NCBI GenBank assembly: GCA_021735655.1
Contig: JAIPGM010000005.1
Coordinates: 32,001 to 96,000 of the forward strand
Direction: 5' to 3'
DNA length: 64,000 nucleotides
DNA from: Candidatus Omnitrophota bacterium
Lineage (GTDB): Bacteria > Omnitrophota > Gorgyraeia > Duberdicusellales > 4484-171
The notes beneath the pieces were generated by a model, which saw only the letters and a list, made by a program, of their open reading frames with translations, had not been told where the DNA came from and searched no databases. The first letter of the stretch is position 1; every line of letters begins with the position of its first letter. Shown piece after piece: positions 16,513-54,572 of this stretch. The translations under genes and the position numbers were made by a program.

Positions 16513-17688
16513 TTATTTCCCTAAGTTAATCGCTCTGACCTTTACAACACCTTCAATCTTAGAAAGAGCTTTTATAGTCTCCTCCTTAGGTTCATCTGAA
16601 GCATCGATAATCGTACAAGCATAGCCGGCTTTACTCTTATTTAACATCTCAACGATATTAATATTGGCTTTAGCTAAAATCGTTGAAACCTGACCAACCA
16701 TATTCGGAATATCTTTATTCATAACTATCAACCGGTGACTAGAATTTTGCTCTAATTTACAGTCAGGAAAATTAACTGAATTCTTAATAACCCCCCGCTC
16801 AATGAAATTACGCAACTGCTTAACAACCATTACTGCGCAATTAGTTTCGGCCTCTTGGGTTGAAGCACCAAGATGAGGTATGGCTATTACCTTATCCATG
16901 TTAAGTAGTTCATCATCAGGAAAATCAGTTACATATCTCTCAACTATACCGTCTTTGATTGCTTTAGCTAAATCATCATTGTTTACTATTCCACCACGGG
17001 AAAGATTTAAAATCCTGACACCTTTTTTCATCCGAGAAAACTTCTCACTATCAACCATTCCTTTAGTTGCATCAGTCAAAGGCGTGTGCAGCGAAATATA
17101 ATCTGCTTCAGCCATAAGTGCATCTAAACCATTAGCTCGTTTTACCTGTCTTGAAAGACCCCAAGCCGACTCAACCGAGATAAACGGATCATAGCCAACA
17201 ACCTCCATACCCAAATCTAAAGCAGCATTGGCCACCATAACCCCGATTTTACCTAAGCCAACAATACCGAGAGTTTTGCCCATAATCTCAAAACCGGCAA
17301 AATCTTTCTTATTCTTTTCTACCGAGGTCGGAACTTCAGTTCCCTTTCCCTTAAGTGATTCAGAAAAGGCAATACCCTTAGAGATATCCCTTGAAGCTAG
17401 CAGCAATCCGGCTATAGTCAACTCTTTTACGGCGTTAGCATTGGCTCCCGGAGTATTAAAAACAACCACCCCTCTTTCTGAGCACTTATCAATCGAAATA
17501 TTGTTGGTTCCGGCTCCAGCCCGACCCACCGCAAGAAGAGATTTCGGTAACTCCATATCATGCATCTTAAAGCTTCGGAGGATTATTGCTTCGGGATTAG
17601 TAACTTCAGTACCAATCTCATATTGATCAAGCGGAAAAAGGGCTAAGCCCTCTGTTGAAATTTTATCTAGTTTCATTACCTTATACAT
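16513..17688 (-). CDS. serA: D-3-phosphoglycerate dehydrogenase (2-hydroxyacid dehydrogenase fold with C-terminal ACT domain)
   Basis: NAD-binding GLGKIGVMVANAA motif. The catalytic region and a C-terminal ACT-like domain are present. Start reassigned to the second ATG of AAGGAGGATATGATG, where the strong RBS lies, instead of the ORF-track start at 17778 that would overlap serC by 70 nt. Confidence 0.8.
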   Translation of the reverse strand: MYKVMKLDKISTEGLALFPLDQYEIGTEVTNPEAIILRSFKMHDMELPKSLLAVGRAGAGTNNISIDKCSERGVVVFNTPGANANAVKELTIAGLLLASRDISKGIAFSESLKGKGTEVPTSVEKNKKDFAGFEIMGKTLGIVGLGKIGVMVANAALDLGMEVVGYDPFISVESAWGLSRQVKRANGLDALMAEADYISLHTPLTDATKGMVDSEKFSRMKKGVRILNLSRGGIVNNDDLAKAIKDGIVERYVTDFPDDELLNMDKVIAIPHLGASTQEAETNCAVMVVKQLRNFIERGVIKNSVNFPDCKLEQNSSHRLIVMNKDIPNMVGQVSTILAKANINIVEMLNKSKAGYACTIIDASDEPKEETIKALSKIEGVVKVRAINLGK

Positions 17689-24064: not shown

Positions 24065-25279
24065 CTAACTTTTTTTCTCTAAGCTCTGCCACTTAGTTTT
24101 TAAATCATCTCTATTTATCGCTTCTAAAAGATAATTAGTAAATTCACCGGCAGTTGCACCATTATCACGACCGGTAATTTTAATTTTTTGTTCAAAGTTT
24201 CCGCAAATATCCAAAGCCATACTTACCTTCTCAGCCTGATCCTTAAAACCAATATGGTTTAAAAGCATTGAACTTGCCCGAATCATTGATGATGGATCAG
24301 CATACTTAGCCCGTCCCTCCTTAACCATTCGAGGAGCACTCCCATGGATAGCCTCAAACATTGCCCAAAATTTACCGATATTAGCACTACCGGCAGTCCC
24401 TACTCCGCCTTGAAGTTGAGCAGCTTCATCAGTTAAAATATCACCGTAAAGATTAGGTAATACCATAACTTGAAAGTCGCTGCGACGGGCCGGATCAAGT
24501 AGTTTAGCAGTCATAATATCAATATACCACTCATCAGAGCTTATGCCTTCGGCTTCATACTCTTTAGCAATAGCTTTAGCTACTTTTGAAAATCTACCAT
24601 CAGTAGTTTTAACTACATTTGATTTTGTAACTACAGTTACCCGTTTTAAATTATTTTTCCGGGCATATTCAAAAGCCATACGGATAATTCGCTCAGCCCC
24701 TTGTTCAGTAATAACCTTAAAATCAATACTTAGATCATCACCGACATTTACCCCGCTAGAACCTAGAATATAGGCGCCTTCAGTATTCTCACGAAAAAAA
24801 ATCCAATCAATACCTTGGGCCGGGACTTTAACCGGCCGAACATTAGCAAAAAGATCCAACTCCCGACGCATAGCAACATTAGCACTTTCAATATTCGGCC
24901 AAGAATCTCCGGCTTGCGGCGTGGTAGTCGGACCTTTTAAAATAACATGGCATTTTTTTATTTCCTTTAAAACGTCATCGGGAATTGCCTTCTTATGTTT
25001 TGCCCGGTTTTCAATAGTTAAACCTTCAATAGTTTTAAAAGCGACTTTTCCTTGCTCAAGCTCTTTAGCCAACATGGCCTCTAAAACCTTACGGGCATGT
25101 TTTGAAATTTCCAGGCCAATTCCATCTCCGGCACAAATACCGATAATTATCGGTTTCAAAGTTGCATAATCAATCCAATCTTTAGCCTGTTTCATTTCCT
25201 TAATCCGCAAAAGTTGTTCTCTAATCAATTGGTCAAATTTATTCTTTGCTTCCTCTATTAATTTAGACTCTTTAAACAT
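24065..25279 (-). CDS. icd: Isocitrate dehydrogenase (NADP-dependent, prokaryotic type) / isopropylmalate dehydrogenase family
   Basis: GDGIGLEI and KGPTTTP motifs. 404 aa. C-terminal NLYGDILTDEAAQL-type signature. Confidence 0.7.
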   Translation of the reverse strand: MFKESKLIEEAKNKFDQLIREQLLRIKEMKQAKDWIDYATLKPIIIGICAGDGIGLEISKHARKVLEAMLAKELEQGKVAFKTIEGLTIENRAKHKKAIPDDVLKEIKKCHVILKGPTTTPQAGDSWPNIESANVAMRRELDLFANVRPVKVPAQGIDWIFFRENTEGAYILGSSGVNVGDDLSIDFKVITEQGAERIIRMAFEYARKNNLKRVTVVTKSNVVKTTDGRFSKVAKAIAKEYEAEGISSDEWYIDIMTAKLLDPARRSDFQVMVLPNLYGDILTDEAAQLQGGVGTAGSANIGKFWAMFEAIHGSAPRMVKEGRAKYADPSSMIRASSMLLNHIGFKDQAEKVSMALDICGNFEQKIKITGRDNGATAGEFTNYLLEAINRDDLKTKWQSLEKKS

Positions 25280-48601: not shown

Positions 48602-49297
48602 TCACCATAATGTATTAACAACAGTATAATTCCAAATAAAATAAATCCCAACAAGTATGAATATAATGCCCGTAATCTTCCTCGTGTATAATTCTAGCAC
48701 CGCTACTTTATGGAACCATTTCGAAAAAGAAGTAACACCCGCAGCAATTCCCAAGGCAAATACAACTACAGGAATACCTGTACCTATACCATAGAAAAAA
48801 GGTAAAATAATCCCATGAGGACTCTTTAAAGCAAGAGGGATTAAGCTGCCGAAAAATAGGGCTGCCGCTATTGGACAAAAAGATAAAGCAAACACTGCCC
48901 CAAGAACAAAAGCCCCCCTGGCTCCTGATTCTGACAATGCTGTCTGCTTGTCTTTAGAAATTGAGAATCTCAAAGCATTTATTTTTAGTATATCTAGCAA
49001 AGACAATCCAACCATTAGCAAAATAGGACCCAAAATCTTATTCATGTATTTCTGCAAAAAATTAGCTACTATCGGAATACTAACCAAAGAAGTTATGATA
49101 ATAGATCCTAACACCGCATAGGTAAGCATACGCCCAACAGTATAAGCAAGGCTTGATTGCAATACTTGTTTTGGATGATTTATTCTTTTTGATAGAAATG
49201 ATATAGCCGCTATATTTGTAGCAAAAGGACAGGGACTTATTGAGGTGAGAATTCCAAACCACAATGCAGAAACCAATGGTAGCACAATTTCAATCAT
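48602..49297 (-). CDS. ccdA: CcdA/DsbD-family thiol-disulfide transmembrane electron-transfer protein
   Basis: 231 aa and six TM helices with the ISPCP motif (LTSISPCPFATN) and a second conserved Cys in SFCP. Confidence 0.75.
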   Translation of the reverse strand: MIEIVLPLVSALWFGILTSISPCPFATNIAAISFLSKRINHPKQVLQSSLAYTVGRMLTYAVLGSIIITSLVSIPIVANFLQKYMNKILGPILLMVGLSLLDILKINALRFSISKDKQTALSESGARGAFVLGAVFALSFCPIAAALFFGSLIPLALKSPHGIILPFFYGIGTGIPVVVFALGIAAGVTSFSKWFHKVAVLELYTRKITGIIFILVGIYFIWNYTVVNTLW

Positions 49298-49299
49298 CT

Positions 49300-49716
49300 C
49301 TAAATATCCTTTAAGTAAGTGCTAATTTCAGTTGTGACATAGTTAAAAAATTTCTTTTTATCTCTTACATATTCCCATATTTTGGTAAGTTTCTTATGCT
49401 TTATTTCTTTGCCATCTTCAATGTATGAAATTACAAGAGTTTTTGTGTAGAGTTGGTATTCATCCACGAAATGCTTATTCTCTTTTTCTTCAATATTCAC
49501 TTCCTTAAAGACCAACAAGCCCTTAACCAGCTCGTCTTTAAAATTTTCTTCAATTGCTTCCTTTGCATACTGCTCCATCTTATAACAAGTCACGCAACGT
49601 GCATTGCCGTGAAAATAATACGCAATTATTTTAGTATCTTCACCAAACGCCATTGTTATATTTATTGATAACAATGCCATTAAAATAATTAGTAGAAAAA
49701 TTTTCTTTATAGCCAT
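49300..49716 (-). CDS. Periplasmic thioredoxin-fold protein with a CxxC motif
   Basis: Signal peptide MAIKKIFLLIILMALLSINITMAFG. CVTC redox motif in a thioredoxin-like beta-alpha context (IIAYYFHGNARCVTCYKMEQYAKEAI). Confidence 0.55.
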   Translation of the reverse strand: MAIKKIFLLIILMALLSINITMAFGEDTKIIAYYFHGNARCVTCYKMEQYAKEAIEENFKDELVKGLLVFKEVNIEEKENKHFVDEYQLYTKTLVISYIEDGKEIKHKKLTKIWEYVRDKKKFFNYVTTEISTYLKDI

Positions 49717-49719
49717 GTC

Positions 49720-50676
49720 TTACATTACCAATTGAAGCATATTGAATAAATATCCTGTAATAATTATCGCCACCGTTGTTATTCCAAAAAAGATTGTTAT
49801 TAACTGCAATTTCATTGCTCTCCTTAAGATTATCGCTTCCGGAAAACTCAAGGCAGCTGTTGCCATCATAAAAGCAAGCGCTGTCCCCAGAGGAACACCT
49901 TTTTTAAATAAAACCACCGCTATCGGCACAATTGCCGCACAACTCCCATACATTGGCACACCTAAAATAGCTGCGATAGGCACTGAAAATAGGCCTGTTT
50001 TACTTATTATTGTATGTATTGTTTCTTGGGGGATATAGTTATGGATAAAAGCACCTATACCTACGCCTAATAATACCCACATCCATAATTTTTTTGTAAT
50101 AGATTTGGCCTCATCTATTCCAAAAGCAAGCCTATCTCTTATCCCTTTGTAATCTACCTCTTTAATCACTTGTTTATCTTCTGAGACTAAGCCTTTAACA
50201 AGATATCTCTCTAAGTTCATCTTCCCCAGAATTACCCCTGAGAAAACACCTATTATAATTCCGCTTAATACATAAAAAAGAGTAATTTTCCATCCGAAAA
50301 AACCAAGCATTACTATTACCAAATACTCATTAATCAAGGGTGAAGTTATCAAAAAAGAAAACGTAGCCCCTAAGGGGATACCGGCTTCTAAAAAACTCAA
50401 AAAAATAGGTATAGATGAACATGAACAAAATGGAGTTATTGAACCAAAAAGCGAAGCAAAAAGATTACCGAGAACTTTCTTCTTACCAATCCAATTCTTA
50501 ATCTTATTCTGAGATATGTAAGTTCTAACAAAACCGATGGCTGCTATCATGAAAAACAACAGTAATAGTATTTTAATAGCGTCATACAAAAAGAAATTAG
50601 TTACTCCTGCCAATCTTGACTCCGGGGCCAAGCCAAAAACAGAATAAACTAACCAATCTATTATCGGCTGCAGCAT
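49720..50676 (-). CDS. DUF318 (PF03773) permease with TPFCSCS motif, ArsP-like
   Basis: 318 aa, 8 TM helices. [11 protein letters not shown] matches the signature of the ArsP/DUF318 permease family. Confidence 0.7.
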
Positions 50677-50801
50677 GATTTGCCCTTATCTTTATCCTTA
50701 CTCTCACAACAAGATTTTGTTTTTGCCTTTTTTTCCATCTTTTTATCTAACTTTTCCACTAACTTACAAAAAAAACCTTTCTTCTTTTTTGAATCACTCA
50801 T
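50661..50801 (-). CDS. Unannotated 46-aa Lys- and Cys-rich small protein ([46 protein letters not shown])
   Basis: Own translation; absent from the ORF track because it is shorter than 60 aa. The ATG overlaps the TGA of the DUF134 gene (ATGA). RBS AAGGAGG lies 5 nt upstream. The TAA stop overlaps the permease ATG region (ATGCTGCAGCCGATAA). It carries a C-x18-CC-x10-CC pattern. Confidence 0.45.
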
Positions 50802-51100
50802 TTCTTCCTCCTTGTAATTTTGCAACATCCACCCTCAATCTTTATTGCTTTTATATTTACCAATGCATCACCTATTTTACTATAGGCAGAAGCAATTATT
50901 CTTGAAAAGGTAGGCCGAGATATTTTTAGTTTCTTTGCTGCTGCTTCTTGCGTCAATCCTTCATAATCAGCCAATCTTACTGCCTCAAACTCATCTAAAG
51001 TCATGTGTACCCCGTCTAATTGATTAGATGACTTACACTGTGGCCTGAAACATCTTTCTCCTGGCTCACATTTAACCCATCTGGTCTTTTTCGGTCTCAT
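50798..51100 (-). CDS. DUF134 (UPF0251) family putative DNA-binding protein with sigma-70 region-4-like HTH
   Basis: MRPKKTRWVKCEPGERCFRPQC...LTLDEFEAVRLADYEGLTQEAAAKKLKISRPTFSRII matches the conserved DUF134 core. AGAGGT RBS. Preceded by a 30-bp perfect palindrome. Confidence 0.7.
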   Translation of the reverse strand: MRPKKTRWVKCEPGERCFRPQCKSSNQLDGVHMTLDEFEAVRLADYEGLTQEAAAKKLKISRPTFSRIIASAYSKIGDALVNIKAIKIEGGCCKITRRKK

Positions 51101-51110
51101 AGCTACCTCT

Positions 51111-51140
51111 TTATGTTATGAACATATGTTCATAACATAA
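51111..51140. promoter_or_regulatory. Perfect 30-bp palindrome TTATGTTATGAACAT|ATGTTCATAACATAA immediately upstream of the RBS of the DUF134 operon
   Basis: Verified as its own reverse complement. It ends 11 nt before the DUF134 ATG, adjacent to the AGAGGT RBS. Confidence 0.6.
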
Positions 51141-51161
51141 TATCAGCCAAAACCGCTCATG

Positions 51162-51199
51162 TCAAAAAAAATATCCCGAAGGAAAAATCTTCGGGATAT
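51162..51199 (-). terminator. Hairpin ATATCCCGAAG-gaaaaat-CTTCGGGATAT with T-tract (minus strand) after the MBL-rhodanese gene
   Basis: 11-bp perfect stem. On the minus strand it is followed by TTTTTTTT. Confidence 0.55.
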
Positions 51200-51309
51200 T
51201 AAAAAATAAATATAAGCTCTAATCCAAAACTATTAAAATTATTTACCGATTATTACCTCCCACAACCTGTAACCATGTTAGCTTAATTCTTCTAAATCTT
51301 TCACCTGAA

Positions 51310-52551
51310 TCATTGACTGATTGAACAAGTTCCACCGCCGATTTTCGACTTGTATATCTTTTTGTTATAAGGAAGCTTCATCAGCAACATTCCCATAAGG
51401 CAACTATTAGTTACCCCGGCAAAAATTAAAGCACAAGCAACCCATATTGAAATCCAAATAAAACCACTATGTAAAAAGTAAGCTAAAACTATCCCTAACA
51501 ACATCAAAATTCCAGCAACAACTCTCACTTGTCGCTCCAAAGACACCGAAGACTCCCCTTTGAGGACCGGAAATTTCTGCTTTTGCCAGGCAATTAAGCC
51601 TCCCTTCATTACTTTAACCGAAACAATGCCAGACTGCAATAACATATCAGCAGCCATCGGAGAACGGTTTCCGGTACGACAAAACACTATATACGATCGA
51701 TCAGTCTGACTTAAATCTTTTATTTTAGAATTCAACATATCTATTGGAATATTGATTGAATCCTTAATATGGGACTCATTAAACTCTAATGCTGAACGCA
51801 CATCTAAAAACTTCAAATTAGAGTCTTTAGAAGCATACTCTTTAGCTTCACCAGCTGAAACCATCTCTAAGGTCGTAGCTTCCCCTTTCTGATTAACCCT
51901 AATGATATTATCAATATTAAATGGTTTAGGAAGCTGCTTTGAACGAGCGTCGCTGACAAACTTATCTTTACTGATTTGGCGCATAAAAGGATTATTATTT
52001 TTTTCCTTGGCAATAGTAGATGAAACCTTCCCGTTGTAGTCGTGCGAAGGAAAAATAATAGTGTCTCCCGGAAAATTCTTAAACCTCTGTAAAGTTTCAA
52101 ACATTGCTTCCGGAGACCCATTTTGAAAATCGGTTCTCCCGACACTTCCGATCAGAAGAACGTCACCGGTAAATAATCGACCCTCTCCGTAAATAGCTAT
52201 GGTATCATCGGTGTGACCAGGAGCATATACAACCTTAAACTGCTTTGTTGCTAAAGCTATAGTATCCCCATCTTTAAGCTTTTGATCAACTACTTCGGAA
52301 ATTACTTTTTCGTGCATCAAAACAGGTACTTTAAGCAATTTCTTCAAATTTGCCGCTAAAGAAAAATGATCAGCATGAGTATGGGTATCGATTATATACT
52401 TTAAGTTTAGTTTCTTTTTTTTAAGATAATTGAGATAGTCTTCCTGAAGGCTTATATGTGGATCGATAACTAAGGCTTGATTTTGCGAGCCTAAAATATA
52501 AGAATAGCAACTTCCAGCAGTAAATTGTTTCATTGAAAAATCTTTATTCAT
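51310..52551 (-). CDS. MBL-fold hydrolase (persulfide-dioxygenase/ETHE1-like) fused to a rhodanese domain and a C-terminal two-TM anchor
   Basis: IIDTHTHADHFS metal-binding motif. Rhodanese active-site loop CRTGNRS. C-terminal hydrophobic YgaP-like segment. The architecture resembles CstB-type fusions. Confidence 0.75.
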   Translation of the reverse strand: MNKDFSMKQFTAGSCYSYILGSQNQALVIDPHISLQEDYLNYLKKKKLNLKYIIDTHTHADHFSLAANLKKLLKVPVLMHEKVISEVVDQKLKDGDTIALATKQFKVVYAPGHTDDTIAIYGEGRLFTGDVLLIGSVGRTDFQNGSPEAMFETLQRFKNFPGDTIIFPSHDYNGKVSSTIAKEKNNNPFMRQISKDKFVSDARSKQLPKPFNIDNIIRVNQKGEATTLEMVSAGEAKEYASKDSNLKFLDVRSALEFNESHIKDSINIPIDMLNSKIKDLSQTDRSYIVFCRTGNRSPMAADMLLQSGIVSVKVMKGGLIAWQKQKFPVLKGESSVSLERQVRVVAGILMLLGIVLAYFLHSGFIWISIWVACALIFAGVTNSCLMGMLLMKLPYNKKIYKSKIGGGTCSISQ

Positions 52552-53168: not shown

Positions 53169-54572
53169 ATGAAAAACAAGATAGCTATTATTGGTGCCGG
53201 GGTTGGCGGCTTAGCTACAGCTGCCCGCTTAAGCTTTAAAGGCCACCCGGTAGAAGTCTATGAAAAACTTACCTGTTGTGGCGGCAGAGCCAATATCATA
53301 GAAGACAAAGGGTTTAAGTTTGATACCGGGCCTTCTTTTGTGATGATGCCTGACTTCTTTAAAGAAGTCTTTGACTACTGCCAAGAAGATATCAAAGCTT
53401 ATCTGGACTTAAAAGTCCTGGATAAAAATTATAAAATATTTTATCCTGACGGCGATTCGCTTACTATCCATAAAGACAATCAAAAAACCGAAGCTGAACT
53501 GGAAAGGATAGAACCGGGAAGCTCTAAAGGCTATAAAAACTTTATTGTTGAAACCGGTAAAATCTATAAAGCCGTAGTTCCTCTGCTCTATCGCTGTTTC
53601 CGGCCCCAGGATGCCTTTAATCCGGCTTACTGGAAACTGATCAACAAACTGCATCTGGGAAAATCTTACTGGCAACTGGCAAAAAAGTTCTTTAAATCCG
53701 ATAAACTCTGCTACGCTTTTACCTTTGAAGCTATGTTTATCGGCGTCTCCCCTTTTAAGACTCCGGCCTTTTACAGTGTGATCGGTTACACTGACCAAGT
53801 CGATAAAATCGCTCACCCCATAGGCGGAATGTACCAAATACCTAAAGCTTTAGAAAAAATGGCTTTGAAATTCGGAACAAAGTTTAACTACCAACGTGAA
53901 ATAACCTCGCTAGAAGAAATCAAGGCTGATAAATTTGTGATCAATGCCGACTATTCTTTTGCTCAAAGTAAACTACTGGGAAAAAAGATCCCTGATTACG
54001 ACTATTCCTGCTCAGTGCTCCTGTTCTACTGGGGAATGAAAAAGAAAATACCCAACCTCGAGCATCACAATCTTTTCTTTGCTCAAGACCTAAGAAATAA
54101 CCTGAAAAATATTTTCCAAAACGGTATTGTGGGCGATGATTTTTCTTTTTATATTCACGTTCCCACAGTCACTGACCCCTCACTGGCCCCTGAAGGAAAG
54201 GATATCCTCTATATTTTAGCTCCGGTGCCGAATCTTAAAACATTTAAAGGGGATTTCAAAATCTACGAAGATAGAATAAGAAAAAAAGTTATTGCTAAAA
54301 TTGAATCACTGTGCGGATTTAAAATTGAAGATTCAATTGAAACCGAACACAAGTTTTACCCCGAAGATTTTATAAAAAAATACAGTATACTCTACGGGGC
54401 TACTTTTGGCCTAGCTCACAGCTTAAAACAAAGTGCTTTTTTCAGACCGCCTAACTACACCTCTAAACAAAAAAACATTTATTTTGTAGGGGCCAGCACC
54501 CAGCCTGGGGGCGGACTACCTCCAGTTATTGCCTCATCACGAATAGTGGCTGATTTGATTACTAAGAGCTAA
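53169..54572 (+). CDS. Phytoene-desaturase-family FAD oxidoreductase (CrtI/CrtD-like)
   Basis: IAIIGAGVGGLATAARL dinucleotide motif. 467 aa with a CrtI-like C-terminal region. Confidence 0.75.
   Translation: MKNKIAIIGAGVGGLATAARLSFKGHPVEVYEKLTCCGGRANIIEDKGFKFDTGPSFVMMPDFFKEVFDYCQEDIKAYLDLKVLDKNYKIFYPDGDSLTIHKDNQKTEAELERIEPGSSKGYKNFIVETGKIYKAVVPLLYRCFRPQDAFNPAYWKLINKLHLGKSYWQLAKKFFKSDKLCYAFTFEAMFIGVSPFKTPAFYSVIGYTDQVDKIAHPIGGMYQIPKALEKMALKFGTKFNYQREITSLEEIKADKFVINADYSFAQSKLLGKKIPDYDYSCSVLLFYWGMKKKIPNLEHHNLFFAQDLRNNLKNIFQNGIVGDDFSFYIHVPTVTDPSLAPEGKDILYILAPVPNLKTFKGDFKIYEDRIRKKVIAKIESLCGFKIEDSIETEHKFYPEDFIKKYSILYGATFGLAHSLKQSAFFRPPNYTSKQKNIYFVGASTQPGGGLPPVIASSRIVADLITKS

Follow-up and report, generated by a model that had tools for sequence, protein, structure and literature searches.

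What is the function of a perfect 30-bp palindrome that directly abuts the ribosome-binding site (RBS) of a gene from a family of unknown function? This question is raised by a stretch of 64,000 nucleotides from a Candidatus Omnitrophota bacterium (contig JAIPGM010000005.1, positions 32,001 to 96,000; hereafter the window, meaning the whole of this stretch), in which the palindrome occupies positions 51111-51140, in front of a gene for a DUF134/UPF0251 protein. The first-pass annotation of the window had suggested that the palindrome is the operator of a dimeric repressor, for which the DUF134 protein was named as a plausible candidate, and had also considered an RNA hairpin occluding the RBS, or a cruciform. 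Our analysis supports the first of these suggestions, on the basis of the conservation of the site, its association with DUF134 genes, the covariation of site and protein, a prediction that held in archaea, and the half-site of the regulator DeoR. We therefore consider it likely, from sequence comparison, that the core of the palindrome serves as operator for the adjacent DUF134 protein, which would autorepress an arsenic (ars) operon and would probably sense arsenicals. Three points are new with respect to the first-pass annotation, namely the identity of the operon as an ars operon, the overlap of the site with the predicted promoter, and the importance of the inner 20-22 bp alone.

The element, TTATGTTATGAACATATGTTCATAACATAA, reads the same as its reverse complement, and its two 15-bp arms adjoin without a spacer, exactly as annotated. 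Arms of this length are far beyond chance: 200 first-order Markov shuffles of the window usually gave longest arms of 7-10 bp, and never more than 13 bp. The runner-up among the perfect palindromes of the window itself has 9-bp arms. The element and its conserved part are as follows.

51111-51140, no strand: perfect 30-bp palindrome, made up of the putative operator core and a window-specific symmetric extension of 5 bp on each side
51116-51135, no strand: conserved putative operator core TTATGAAC-ATAT-GTTCATAA, two 8-bp half-sites about a 4-bp centre

The window holds other perfect palindromes as well, such as GACTTCTTTAAAGAAGTC (18 bp, 53352-53369, inside an amine-oxidase-like open reading frame (ORF) at 53169-54572) and ACCGATAATTATCGGT (16 bp, 25139-25154).

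We compared the element with the upstream regions of 80 orthologous DUF134 loci (61-91% identity, nearly all from Candidatus Omnitrophota, with one genome scanned per species), to which the window was added as the 81st. Almost every orthologue is preceded by TTATGAACATATGTTCATAA or TAATGCACATATGTGCATTA. The 16-mer ATGNACATATGTNCAT, with two mismatches or fewer, was present in exactly one copy in 75 of the 81 loci, always 5' of the DUF134 gene and starting at -29 to -38 in 71 loci, and it was found nowhere else in the approximately 530 kb of flanking DNA of the orthologous loci. The remaining six loci carry diverged dyads or a half-site. Across 80 sites, the dyad has a complementarity of 0.8-1.0 at positions 1-8 and 10, counted from its centre, which declines to 0.54 at position 11 and is at background (0.13-0.38) from position 12 outward; the sites with GAAC half-sites (n = 41) carry about 2 bits per position. 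Because complementarity falls to background from position 12, the functional unit is a 20-22-bp dyad, at 51116-51135 in the window. In each arm of the 30-mer, the outermost 4-5 bp are specific to the window and are not kept in relatives, those on the promoter side belonging to the -10 element. The outer 5 bp per arm were considered as a component of the site and rejected, given that symmetry at distances 12-15 was at background in the same 80 sites, and we treat this extension as lineage-specific or incidental. Long perfect dyads with other flanks occur in a few loci (L058, L057 and L062, each 30 bp).

We also considered whether the palindrome could be a dispersed repeat, similar to repetitive extragenic palindromic (REP) sequences or miniature inverted-repeat transposable elements, that stands upstream of the DUF134 gene by chance. 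The first-pass annotation had named such a repeat family as the finding that would speak against an operator, and had proposed a search of the genome for further copies and half-sites. We made this search in the window, where the site is single-copy and where no additional half-site with fewer than two mismatches was found. Weaker half-site matches with two to three mismatches numbered five, and the total of seven is not significant (4.1 expected; 10 of 100 shuffles reach seven). GAAC-N4-GTTC has one further match in the window, at 17331, which is probably due to chance, and GCAC-N4-GTGC has none in the 64 kb. Likewise, the orthologous loci have one copy each, at the DUF134 promoter, and none in the flanks of 4 kb on either side of the 80 loci.

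The exact 20-mer was also found in metagenome contigs, at no fewer than 121 sites in 120 contigs. In 93 of the 121 matches listed, a DUF134 homologue lies 7-173 nt downstream (mostly 11-29 nt); the others are located at contig ends (7) or have no adjacent DUF134 gene (21). The adjacent DUF134 proteins among these matches are 30-80% identical to the window protein, so that one identical operator would serve very distant members of the family. Among the same listed matches, the 20-mer also heads operons whose first gene is of the NifX-like Nitro_FeMo-Co or DUF5320-like type and in which DUF134 comes further down (L161, L096 and L176), or precedes Nitro_FeMo-Co- or DUF5320-type genes alone (L095, L106 and L116); NifX-like genes are typical of DUF134 neighbourhoods.

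The listed matches also include 11 intergenic sites at which the 20-mer is the core of a longer perfect palindrome of 34-48 bp, (A)GGTCAGT-20mer-ACTGACC(T). These sites fall into four contexts on contigs of about 50% G+C (L130:1211-1244 and L130:10916-10961 on one contig, and L083, L084, L092, L135, L141, L150, L166, L185 and L186). They are found at 3'-end positions among housekeeping genes; one example follows a RecJ-like gene, another separates tuf from rpsJ, and a third lies between convergent genes. The neighbouring genes that we examined showed no link to DUF134 and gave no explanation. These palindromes may be REP-like elements with a core inherited from a common ancestor, terminator-like elements, or sites of an unseen regulator. 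They, and the presence of two of them on one contig, favour the dispersed-repeat explanation; however, the GGTCAGT flanks are absent in the window, and the single copy in the window, the single copy per orthologous locus and the preponderance of DUF134 genes behind the metagenome copies all argue against it. As far as the 64 kb of the window and the flanks of the orthologous loci can tell, we therefore give it almost no credence.

Two further observations concern the metagenome copies. The 20-mer and a TTGAC-type promoter stand before a set of Nitro_FeMo-Co, pyruvoyl arginine decarboxylase and ParA/NUBPL Fe-S ATPase genes (L095:1287-1306), before an HlyD-AcrB RND efflux pair (L089:2308-2327) and before a Nitro_FeMo-Co gene (L116:6797-6816), and it is possible that these non-ars operons are further regulon members in other organisms. 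In addition, at L096:10440-10495, and also in L176, a dyad of a third, GGGC type, TAATGGGCATATGCCCATTA, lies beside a GAAC 20-mer, upstream of a DUF5320-like gene that is followed by DUF134.

Next, we examined the position of the dyad relative to the signals for transcription and translation. The first-pass annotation had placed the palindrome between a terminator hairpin of the upstream gene and the AGAGGT RBS. This arrangement is correct, with the gene on the minus strand, along which the order is terminator hairpin, -35, -10, palindrome, RBS and ATG.

51170-51200, minus strand: intrinsic-terminator-like hairpin of the upstream MBL-rhodanese gene (12-bp stem and T-run), which would insulate the operon promoter
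51160-51165, minus strand: -35 hexamer TTGACA, conserved in an alignment of 29 orthologous promoters
51137-51145, minus strand: extended -10 element TG-A-TATTAT (hexamer 51142-51137), the final 4 nt of which are the first 4 nt of the palindrome
51105-51110, minus strand: RBS AGAGGT, directly abutting the palindrome

The predicted promoter of the window is of the sigma-70 type and near consensus, with 11 of 12 matches and a 17-nt spacer. Transcription would start at about 51131-51129, 7 nt past the -10 element and inside the left arm of the palindrome. Among 78 orthologous loci, the best -35/-10 pair reached a score of 10 of 12 or better in 64 and the full 12 of 12 in 26, and in all of those 64 the operator overlaps or abuts the -10 element. 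Thus, the dyad overlaps a predicted consensus promoter both in the window and in these loci, the position of the start itself being a prediction. The distance from the end of the -10 element to the dyad centre is 11-12 nt for sites with GAAC half-sites and 6 nt for those with GCAC half-sites, in which TATAAT itself lies inside the left arm. The distance from the site to the start codon, by comparison, ranges from 11 to 190 nt. The gene directly upstream (51310-52551, minus strand) encodes an MBL-rhodanese-YgaP-like membrane-domain fusion, and such a gene also adjoins the DUF134-ars cluster in L036 and L037.

These positions bear on whether the element works as a nucleic-acid structure, either in RNA, by a hairpin that masks the RBS or causes termination, or in DNA, as a cruciform. 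The full 30-mer can form a DNA hairpin of -9.7 kcal/mol (z = -6.4), and a read-through RNA would fold the palindrome together with an outer helix at -27.5 kcal/mol (z = -6), burying the AUG; moreover, a double change of A:T to C:G would keep an RNA stem as well. However, given the conserved promoter, transcription would begin within the left arm or past it, so that the primary transcript could not form the stem, and the predicted mRNA is left with a hairpin of no more than 4 bp (-4.8 kcal/mol, z = -1.4). It is also the sequence, and not just the pairing, that is kept between regulators only 30-50% identical, and the distance to the start codon, as noted above, is variable. The 20-bp dyad of the relatives forms a DNA hairpin of -4.3 kcal/mol, which is short for cruciform extrusion. 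In the window, the outer helix (51085-51165, minus strand) would enclose the palindrome hairpin by pairing the promoter spacer GCGGUUUUGGCUG with UAGCUAUGAGACCG, the region of the start codon. A model in which this helix sequesters the AUG was rejected, as no more than 6 bp remain in the consensus fold of 29 loci (-6 kcal/mol) and the 28 relatives do not share the helix. A scan of 50600-51500 against Rfam gave two sub-threshold chance matches, neither of them at the palindrome, which also has no T-run. The hairpin and the cruciform put forward in the first-pass annotation are therefore, in our judgement, highly improbable.

If the DUF134 protein reads the dyad, then the recognition helix and the half-sites should be related. 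This is indeed the case, since both half-sites switch symmetrically and together with the recognition helix.

GAAC/GTTC half-sites: helix [IV]SRPTFSR, 37 loci
GAAC-class single variants: VSRPTFTR, VSRSTFSR, and an ISRPTFSR locus with a GAGC/GAAC site, one each
GCAC/GTGC half-sites: helix H-R-S-T-[IV], 33 loci
GCAT/ATGC half-sites: helix IHQSTISR, 5 loci

The columns that are most informative on the operator class are residues 63, 65 and 61 (0.86-0.92 bits of mutual information). From the change of R62 to Q together with that of C to T, we predicted that proteins with an SQPTF helix use ATGAAT-N4-ATTCAT. Proteins with such a helix were present among the cluster representatives of the DUF134 family, and a search seeded with one of them, P0131, yielded a list of 120 homologues from DPANN archaea, all of which have an SQPT[FL]xR helix; eight of their loci were fetched, and seven of these had upstream sequence. 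TGAAT-N4-ATTCA was present in six of the seven testable loci, usually as TTATGAATATATATTCATAA, and the seventh had GAAT-type half-sites, while TGAAC-N4-GTTCA was absent from all seven. The archaeal dyads lie directly 3' of a TATA-like box at the operon head, and a second copy often follows. The archaea are an independent lineage with a different basal transcription machinery, and we regard this result as the strongest single argument that the DUF134 helix reads the dyad. The archaeal DUF134 operons (L202-L211) contain DUF5320, Nitro_FeMo-Co, ParA/NUBPL-ferredoxin, Zip, EncFtn-like and split ArsP_1 genes.

The covariation is also relevant to the possibility that the palindrome is the operator of another regulator encoded elsewhere, such as a LexA-type, ArsR, Fur or Rrf2-type protein. 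At 51120-51131, the centre of the palindrome, GAACATATGTTC (12 bp), is an exact GAAC-N4-GTTC, which is a LexA site in several phyla (PMC4951493), and thus constitutes a perfect instance of the SOS box of Firmicutes and Actinobacteria (lexA and recA, looked for in order to inspect the local SOS box, were found neither on the window nor on the collected locus sequences); in addition, the binding of DUF134 is itself deduced from sequence. However, conservation in our sites reaches TTATGAAC, with T where the SOS box has C before GAAC, and approximately 38 of the 80 orthologous sites are of the GCAC-N4-GTGC or GCAT-N4-ATGC type, which are not SOS boxes and which switch with the DUF134 helix. The site follows DUF134 and ars genes rather than SOS genes, across both bacteria and archaea, and the archaeal sites agree with what the DUF134 helix predicted. 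Moreover, no ArsR-like gene was found in the window. We therefore consider a different regulator very unlikely, and return to the DUF134 protein as the one that would bind the site.

The DUF134 gene and its product were analysed further.

50798-51100, minus strand: DUF134/UPF0251 gene, 100 amino acids, with its ATG at 51100 (PF02001); the proposed autorepressor

The protein passes the gathering score of PF02001 (81.4 bits against a cut-off of 27, residues 2-94) and misses that of the NCBIfam equivalog PRK04217 (62.3 bits against 115); it is a member of a divergent sub-clade of DUF134/UPF0251. A family search over cluster representatives gave 3,445 clusters from bacteria and archaea (50% identity clusters, E ≤ 0.001). 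The recognition helix, S61-R62-P63-T64-F65-S66-R67, lies in a helix-turn-helix (HTH) that resembles sigma-70 region 4. No Pfam match to a winged-helix domain (HTH_5/HTH_20) was obtained for the protein, and the only matches were to DUF134 and sigma-r4-like HTH families. A PDB sequence search returned no solved DUF134 structure, the best match being the DNA-binding domain of DeoR (E = 0.035). In the AlphaFold2 model, the core of residues 30-88 (pLDDT, the per-residue confidence score, of 83-95) consists of a strand, helices 35-46 and 51-57, a long helix 62-82 and a second strand, and by Foldseek it groups with sigma-70 region 4 domains and the DNA-binding domain of Bacillus subtilis DeoR. The pLDDT falls below 50 for residues 1-26 and 91-100. 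These tails bear the conserved cysteines of the window protein (C11, C17, C22 and C92-C93) and are probably flexible according to the model. Separately, a 1,231-residue repeat protein, P0126, has 11 separate stretches that match DUF134 residues 5-64 at approximately 30% identity, which may be a compositional artefact.

What, then, would the DUF134 protein regulate? Four genes on the same strand follow it, overlapping or tightly spaced, and the same genes are called on the identical public contig.

50661-50828, minus strand: Lys- and Cys-rich ORF, 55 amino acids, between DUF134 and arsP and overlapping both, with two vicinal Cys pairs
49720-50676, minus strand: ArsP_1-family permease (PF03773, 233 bits)
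49300-49716, minus strand: ArsF-family thioredoxin-like CxxC protein (NF040494, 110 bits against a cut-off of 60)
48602-49297, minus strand: ArsG-family (DsbD_2-type) permease (NF040495, 273.5 bits against a cut-off of 200; PF13386)

To judge from the overlap or close spacing of these co-directional ORFs, DUF134 and the ars genes are presumably co-transcribed. The arsenic link of the window is drawn from arsP, arsF and arsG together with the orthologous loci. In 79 of the 81 loci an ars gene lies co-directionally downstream of DUF134: ArsP in 61, ACR3 in 39, an ArsM-like methyltransferase in 19 and an LMWP-type ArsC in 13, usually accompanied by an ArsE-type thioredoxin, ArsF and ArsG. NCBIfam cut-offs are passed by ArsM (366 against 263), ACR3 (465 against 283), ArsE (TIGR00412), ArsF and ArsG. 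The regulator expected at the head of an ars operon is ArsR, which is the regulator of all ars operons described in the reviews that we consulted, with ArsD as a weak repressor (PMC6205960). An ArsR/SmtB-like ORF was found in only two of 201 sequences (200 loci and the window), and not in the window.

The cysteines point in the same direction. A Cx5C motif (usually Cx5Cx4C, in the N-terminal arm) and a G-x-CC motif near the C-terminus are both present in 124 of 136 ars-linked DUF134 proteins and in none of 18 non-ars DUF134 proteins that use the same 20-mer; the tails of the latter have instead CxxC pairs, fused Nitro_FeMo-Co domains or Gly/Arg-rich sequences.

Several features of these operons should be recorded here. 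The 55-residue ORF has the motif KKKxFFxKLxxKLDKKMEEKAK...CC...SCCS and was seen in 10 or more orthologous loci, and the annotation of the public contig lists it as a gene; its product might act as a small chaperone or As(III)-binding protein. The window operon is without the arsE-type thioredoxin gene (TIGR00412) at 49716-49720, which is present between arsP and arsF in its closest relative, L001, and in 45 loci. One metagenome-assembled genome (MAG), JAHILY01, has two DUF134-headed ars operons with the same GCAC-class operator (L016 and L018), with the gene orders arsF-arsG-ACR3 and arsP-arsE-arsF-arsG, which implies cross-regulation by the paralogous regulators.

We also considered the possibility that DUF134 binds the site and that the signal is not an arsenical but thiol or redox stress, a soft metal (Sb, Cu, Zn or Cd) or Fe-S status, or that there is no small-molecule effector. 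The wider DUF134 neighbourhoods contain Nitro_FeMo-Co, ParA/NUBPL Fe-S carrier, Zip, cation-efflux, EncFtn and ABC-3 genes, which suggests metal or Fe-S functions in general, the upstream neighbour in the window is a sulfur enzyme of the MBL-rhodanese type, and cysteines can sense oxidation as well as metalloids. The best NCBIfam matches of the window permease, SaoE and a Cu/Zn exporter, both below cut-off, point the same way. However, the genes downstream of DUF134 in 79 of the 81 loci are ACR3, arsM, arsC, arsP and arsEFG, with curated cut-offs passed, and the cysteine signature is confined to the ars-linked clade. In addition, as ArsR is missing from these clusters, another regulator must fill its role. 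A non-arsenical signal therefore seems unlikely to us, although it is a credible alternative.

Based on these results, we propose that two copies of DUF134 would each insert the recognition helix into the major groove of one TTATGAAC half-site. The bound dimer would cover the 3' end of the -10 element and the start site and block RNA polymerase, thereby repressing its own operon, namely DUF134, the 55-residue Cys-rich ORF, arsP, arsF and arsG. Trivalent arsenicals (As(III), or methyl- or aromatic As(III)) would then bind the thiolates of C11, C17, C22 and C92-C93 and release the protein from DNA, so that the operon is induced; we infer this release step by analogy with ArsR. The DUF134 gene would thus sit at the position normally held by arsR. 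Considered separately, binding of the site by DUF134 appears very likely from the sequence comparisons, its action as a repressor likely, and an arsenical as its effector somewhat more probable than any other signal or none.

Several points weigh against this proposal. Physical binding, the stoichiometry of the dimer, the start site, the sign of the regulation (repression and not activation) and the effector are inferences. The AlphaFold2 monomer is uninformative on dimerisation and on whether the cysteines converge. The covariation consists of few independent events: on a tree built without the helix, the operator class switches about four times, against about 27 times for shuffled labels, so that the classes are largely clades, and R62Q arose once in the Omnitrophota set. 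There are also exceptions, namely L059, with an SRSTFTR helix and a GCAC site, and L007, with a hybrid GAAC/GTGC site. The archaeal prediction adds one independent lineage, not many, and the same 20-mer is the core of longer dispersed palindromes in unrelated contigs without DUF134. Furthermore, the window permease falls below all NCBIfam equivalog cut-offs, and its best matches, SaoE and SO_0444 (the Cu/Zn exporter), leave its substrate ambiguous. ACR3, arsC and arsM are absent within 4 kb of the window DUF134 gene, which is the part of the window that was searched for them.

If these considerations are extended to the whole family, then we lean, by a narrow measure, towards the following joint reading. 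DUF134/UPF0251 would be a family of one-component repressors with a near-invariant DNA-binding module that uses TTATG-A/C-A-C/T-N4 dyads. Its specificity would follow a two-position code, in which residue 61 (S or H) goes with base A or C and residue 62 (R or Q) with base C or T, and its sensor tails would be interchangeable (Cys arms, zinc-ribbon-like CxxC pairs or fused NifX-like domains). The window clade would be a non-ArsR arsenic-responsive repressor of ars operons in Omnitrophota, and in MAGs labelled Auribacterota, Thermodesulfovibrionia and Pseudomonadota. A metalloid-responsive repressor with a dyad operator is a known kind of system; the regulator family, the operator and the recognition code are not described in the literature that we searched, in which the operator sequences and a regulatory role of DUF134 were absent and mentions of DUF134, UPF0251, COG1342 or PF02001 were incidental.

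If this is true, then a large family that is annotated only as a domain of unknown function would acquire a DNA target, a mode of action and a role in physiology. A second, unrelated family of arsenical-sensing repressors would also alter how ars operons are recognised in metagenomes, chiefly in candidate phyla that lack arsR, such as Omnitrophota, and would offer a new chassis for biosensors of arsenic or organoarsenicals. Moreover, an identical 20-mer would serve proteins of 30-50% identity, and a simple residue-base code has passed one blind prediction; these two features would make the family a good model for HTH specificity.

How does the proposed system compare with those already known? 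It resembles ArsR in that a small autoregulated repressor gene would head an ars operon, with its operator in the promoter, and the downstream genes of the two kinds of operon are of the same set (ACR3, arsC, arsM, arsP and arsEFG). ArsR is presumed to be released when As(III) binds its cysteine thiolates (PMC6205960). The differences concern the fold, which is a sigma-70-region-4-like HTH (PF02001) in DUF134 and a winged helix (HTH_5/HTH_20) in ArsR, the operator sequence, and the position of the cysteines, which are in the N- and C-terminal tails of DUF134 and in or near helices in ArsR.

The nearest solved HTH is that of B. subtilis DeoR, of the SorC family (PDB 7bhy and 8r7y), with 40% identity over 40 residues and a root-mean-square deviation of 0.7 Å. 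DeoR S33-R34-P35-T36-V37-S38-R39 aligns with DUF134 S61-R62-P63-T64-F65-S66-R67 (ISRPTVSR against ISRPTFSR). The left half-operator with which DeoR was crystallised, ATTGAACAAAATTTCAAT, holds TTGAACA half-sites, and in this structure the bases contacted by R39 and R34 are G4 and T12, respectively, T12 being the symmetry mate of C7 (PMC11229326). The putative half-site of DUF134 is ATGAACA, and the spacing from the G to the symmetry-related C is 11 bp in both. Mapped onto DUF134, the contacts suggest that R67 may read the invariant G of ATGAAC and that R62 may read the C:G pair at position 3 from the centre. This pair becomes T:A where R62 becomes Q, and arginine with guanine and glutamine with adenine are familiar residue-base pairings. 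In other respects the two proteins differ. DeoR has a large C-terminal sugar-phosphate-binding domain, acts as a tetramer on a bipartite operator of 39 bp that spans -60 to -21, and has deoxyribose-5-phosphate as its signal, whereas the 100-residue DUF134 protein of the window lacks the SorC sugar-phosphate-binding domain, has Cys-rich tails and would use a single 20-bp dyad over the -10 element and start site.

Finally, the proposed arrangement is similar to that of the classical dyad operators of phages and bacteria that overlap the -10 element and start site and act by steric repression: the half-sites are symmetric and separated by approximately one helical turn, the site is predicted to overlap the core promoter, and the regulator would control its own gene. 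There is no difference in principle from these systems; what would be new is the regulator family, together with an operator that is unusually invariant across bacteria and archaea.

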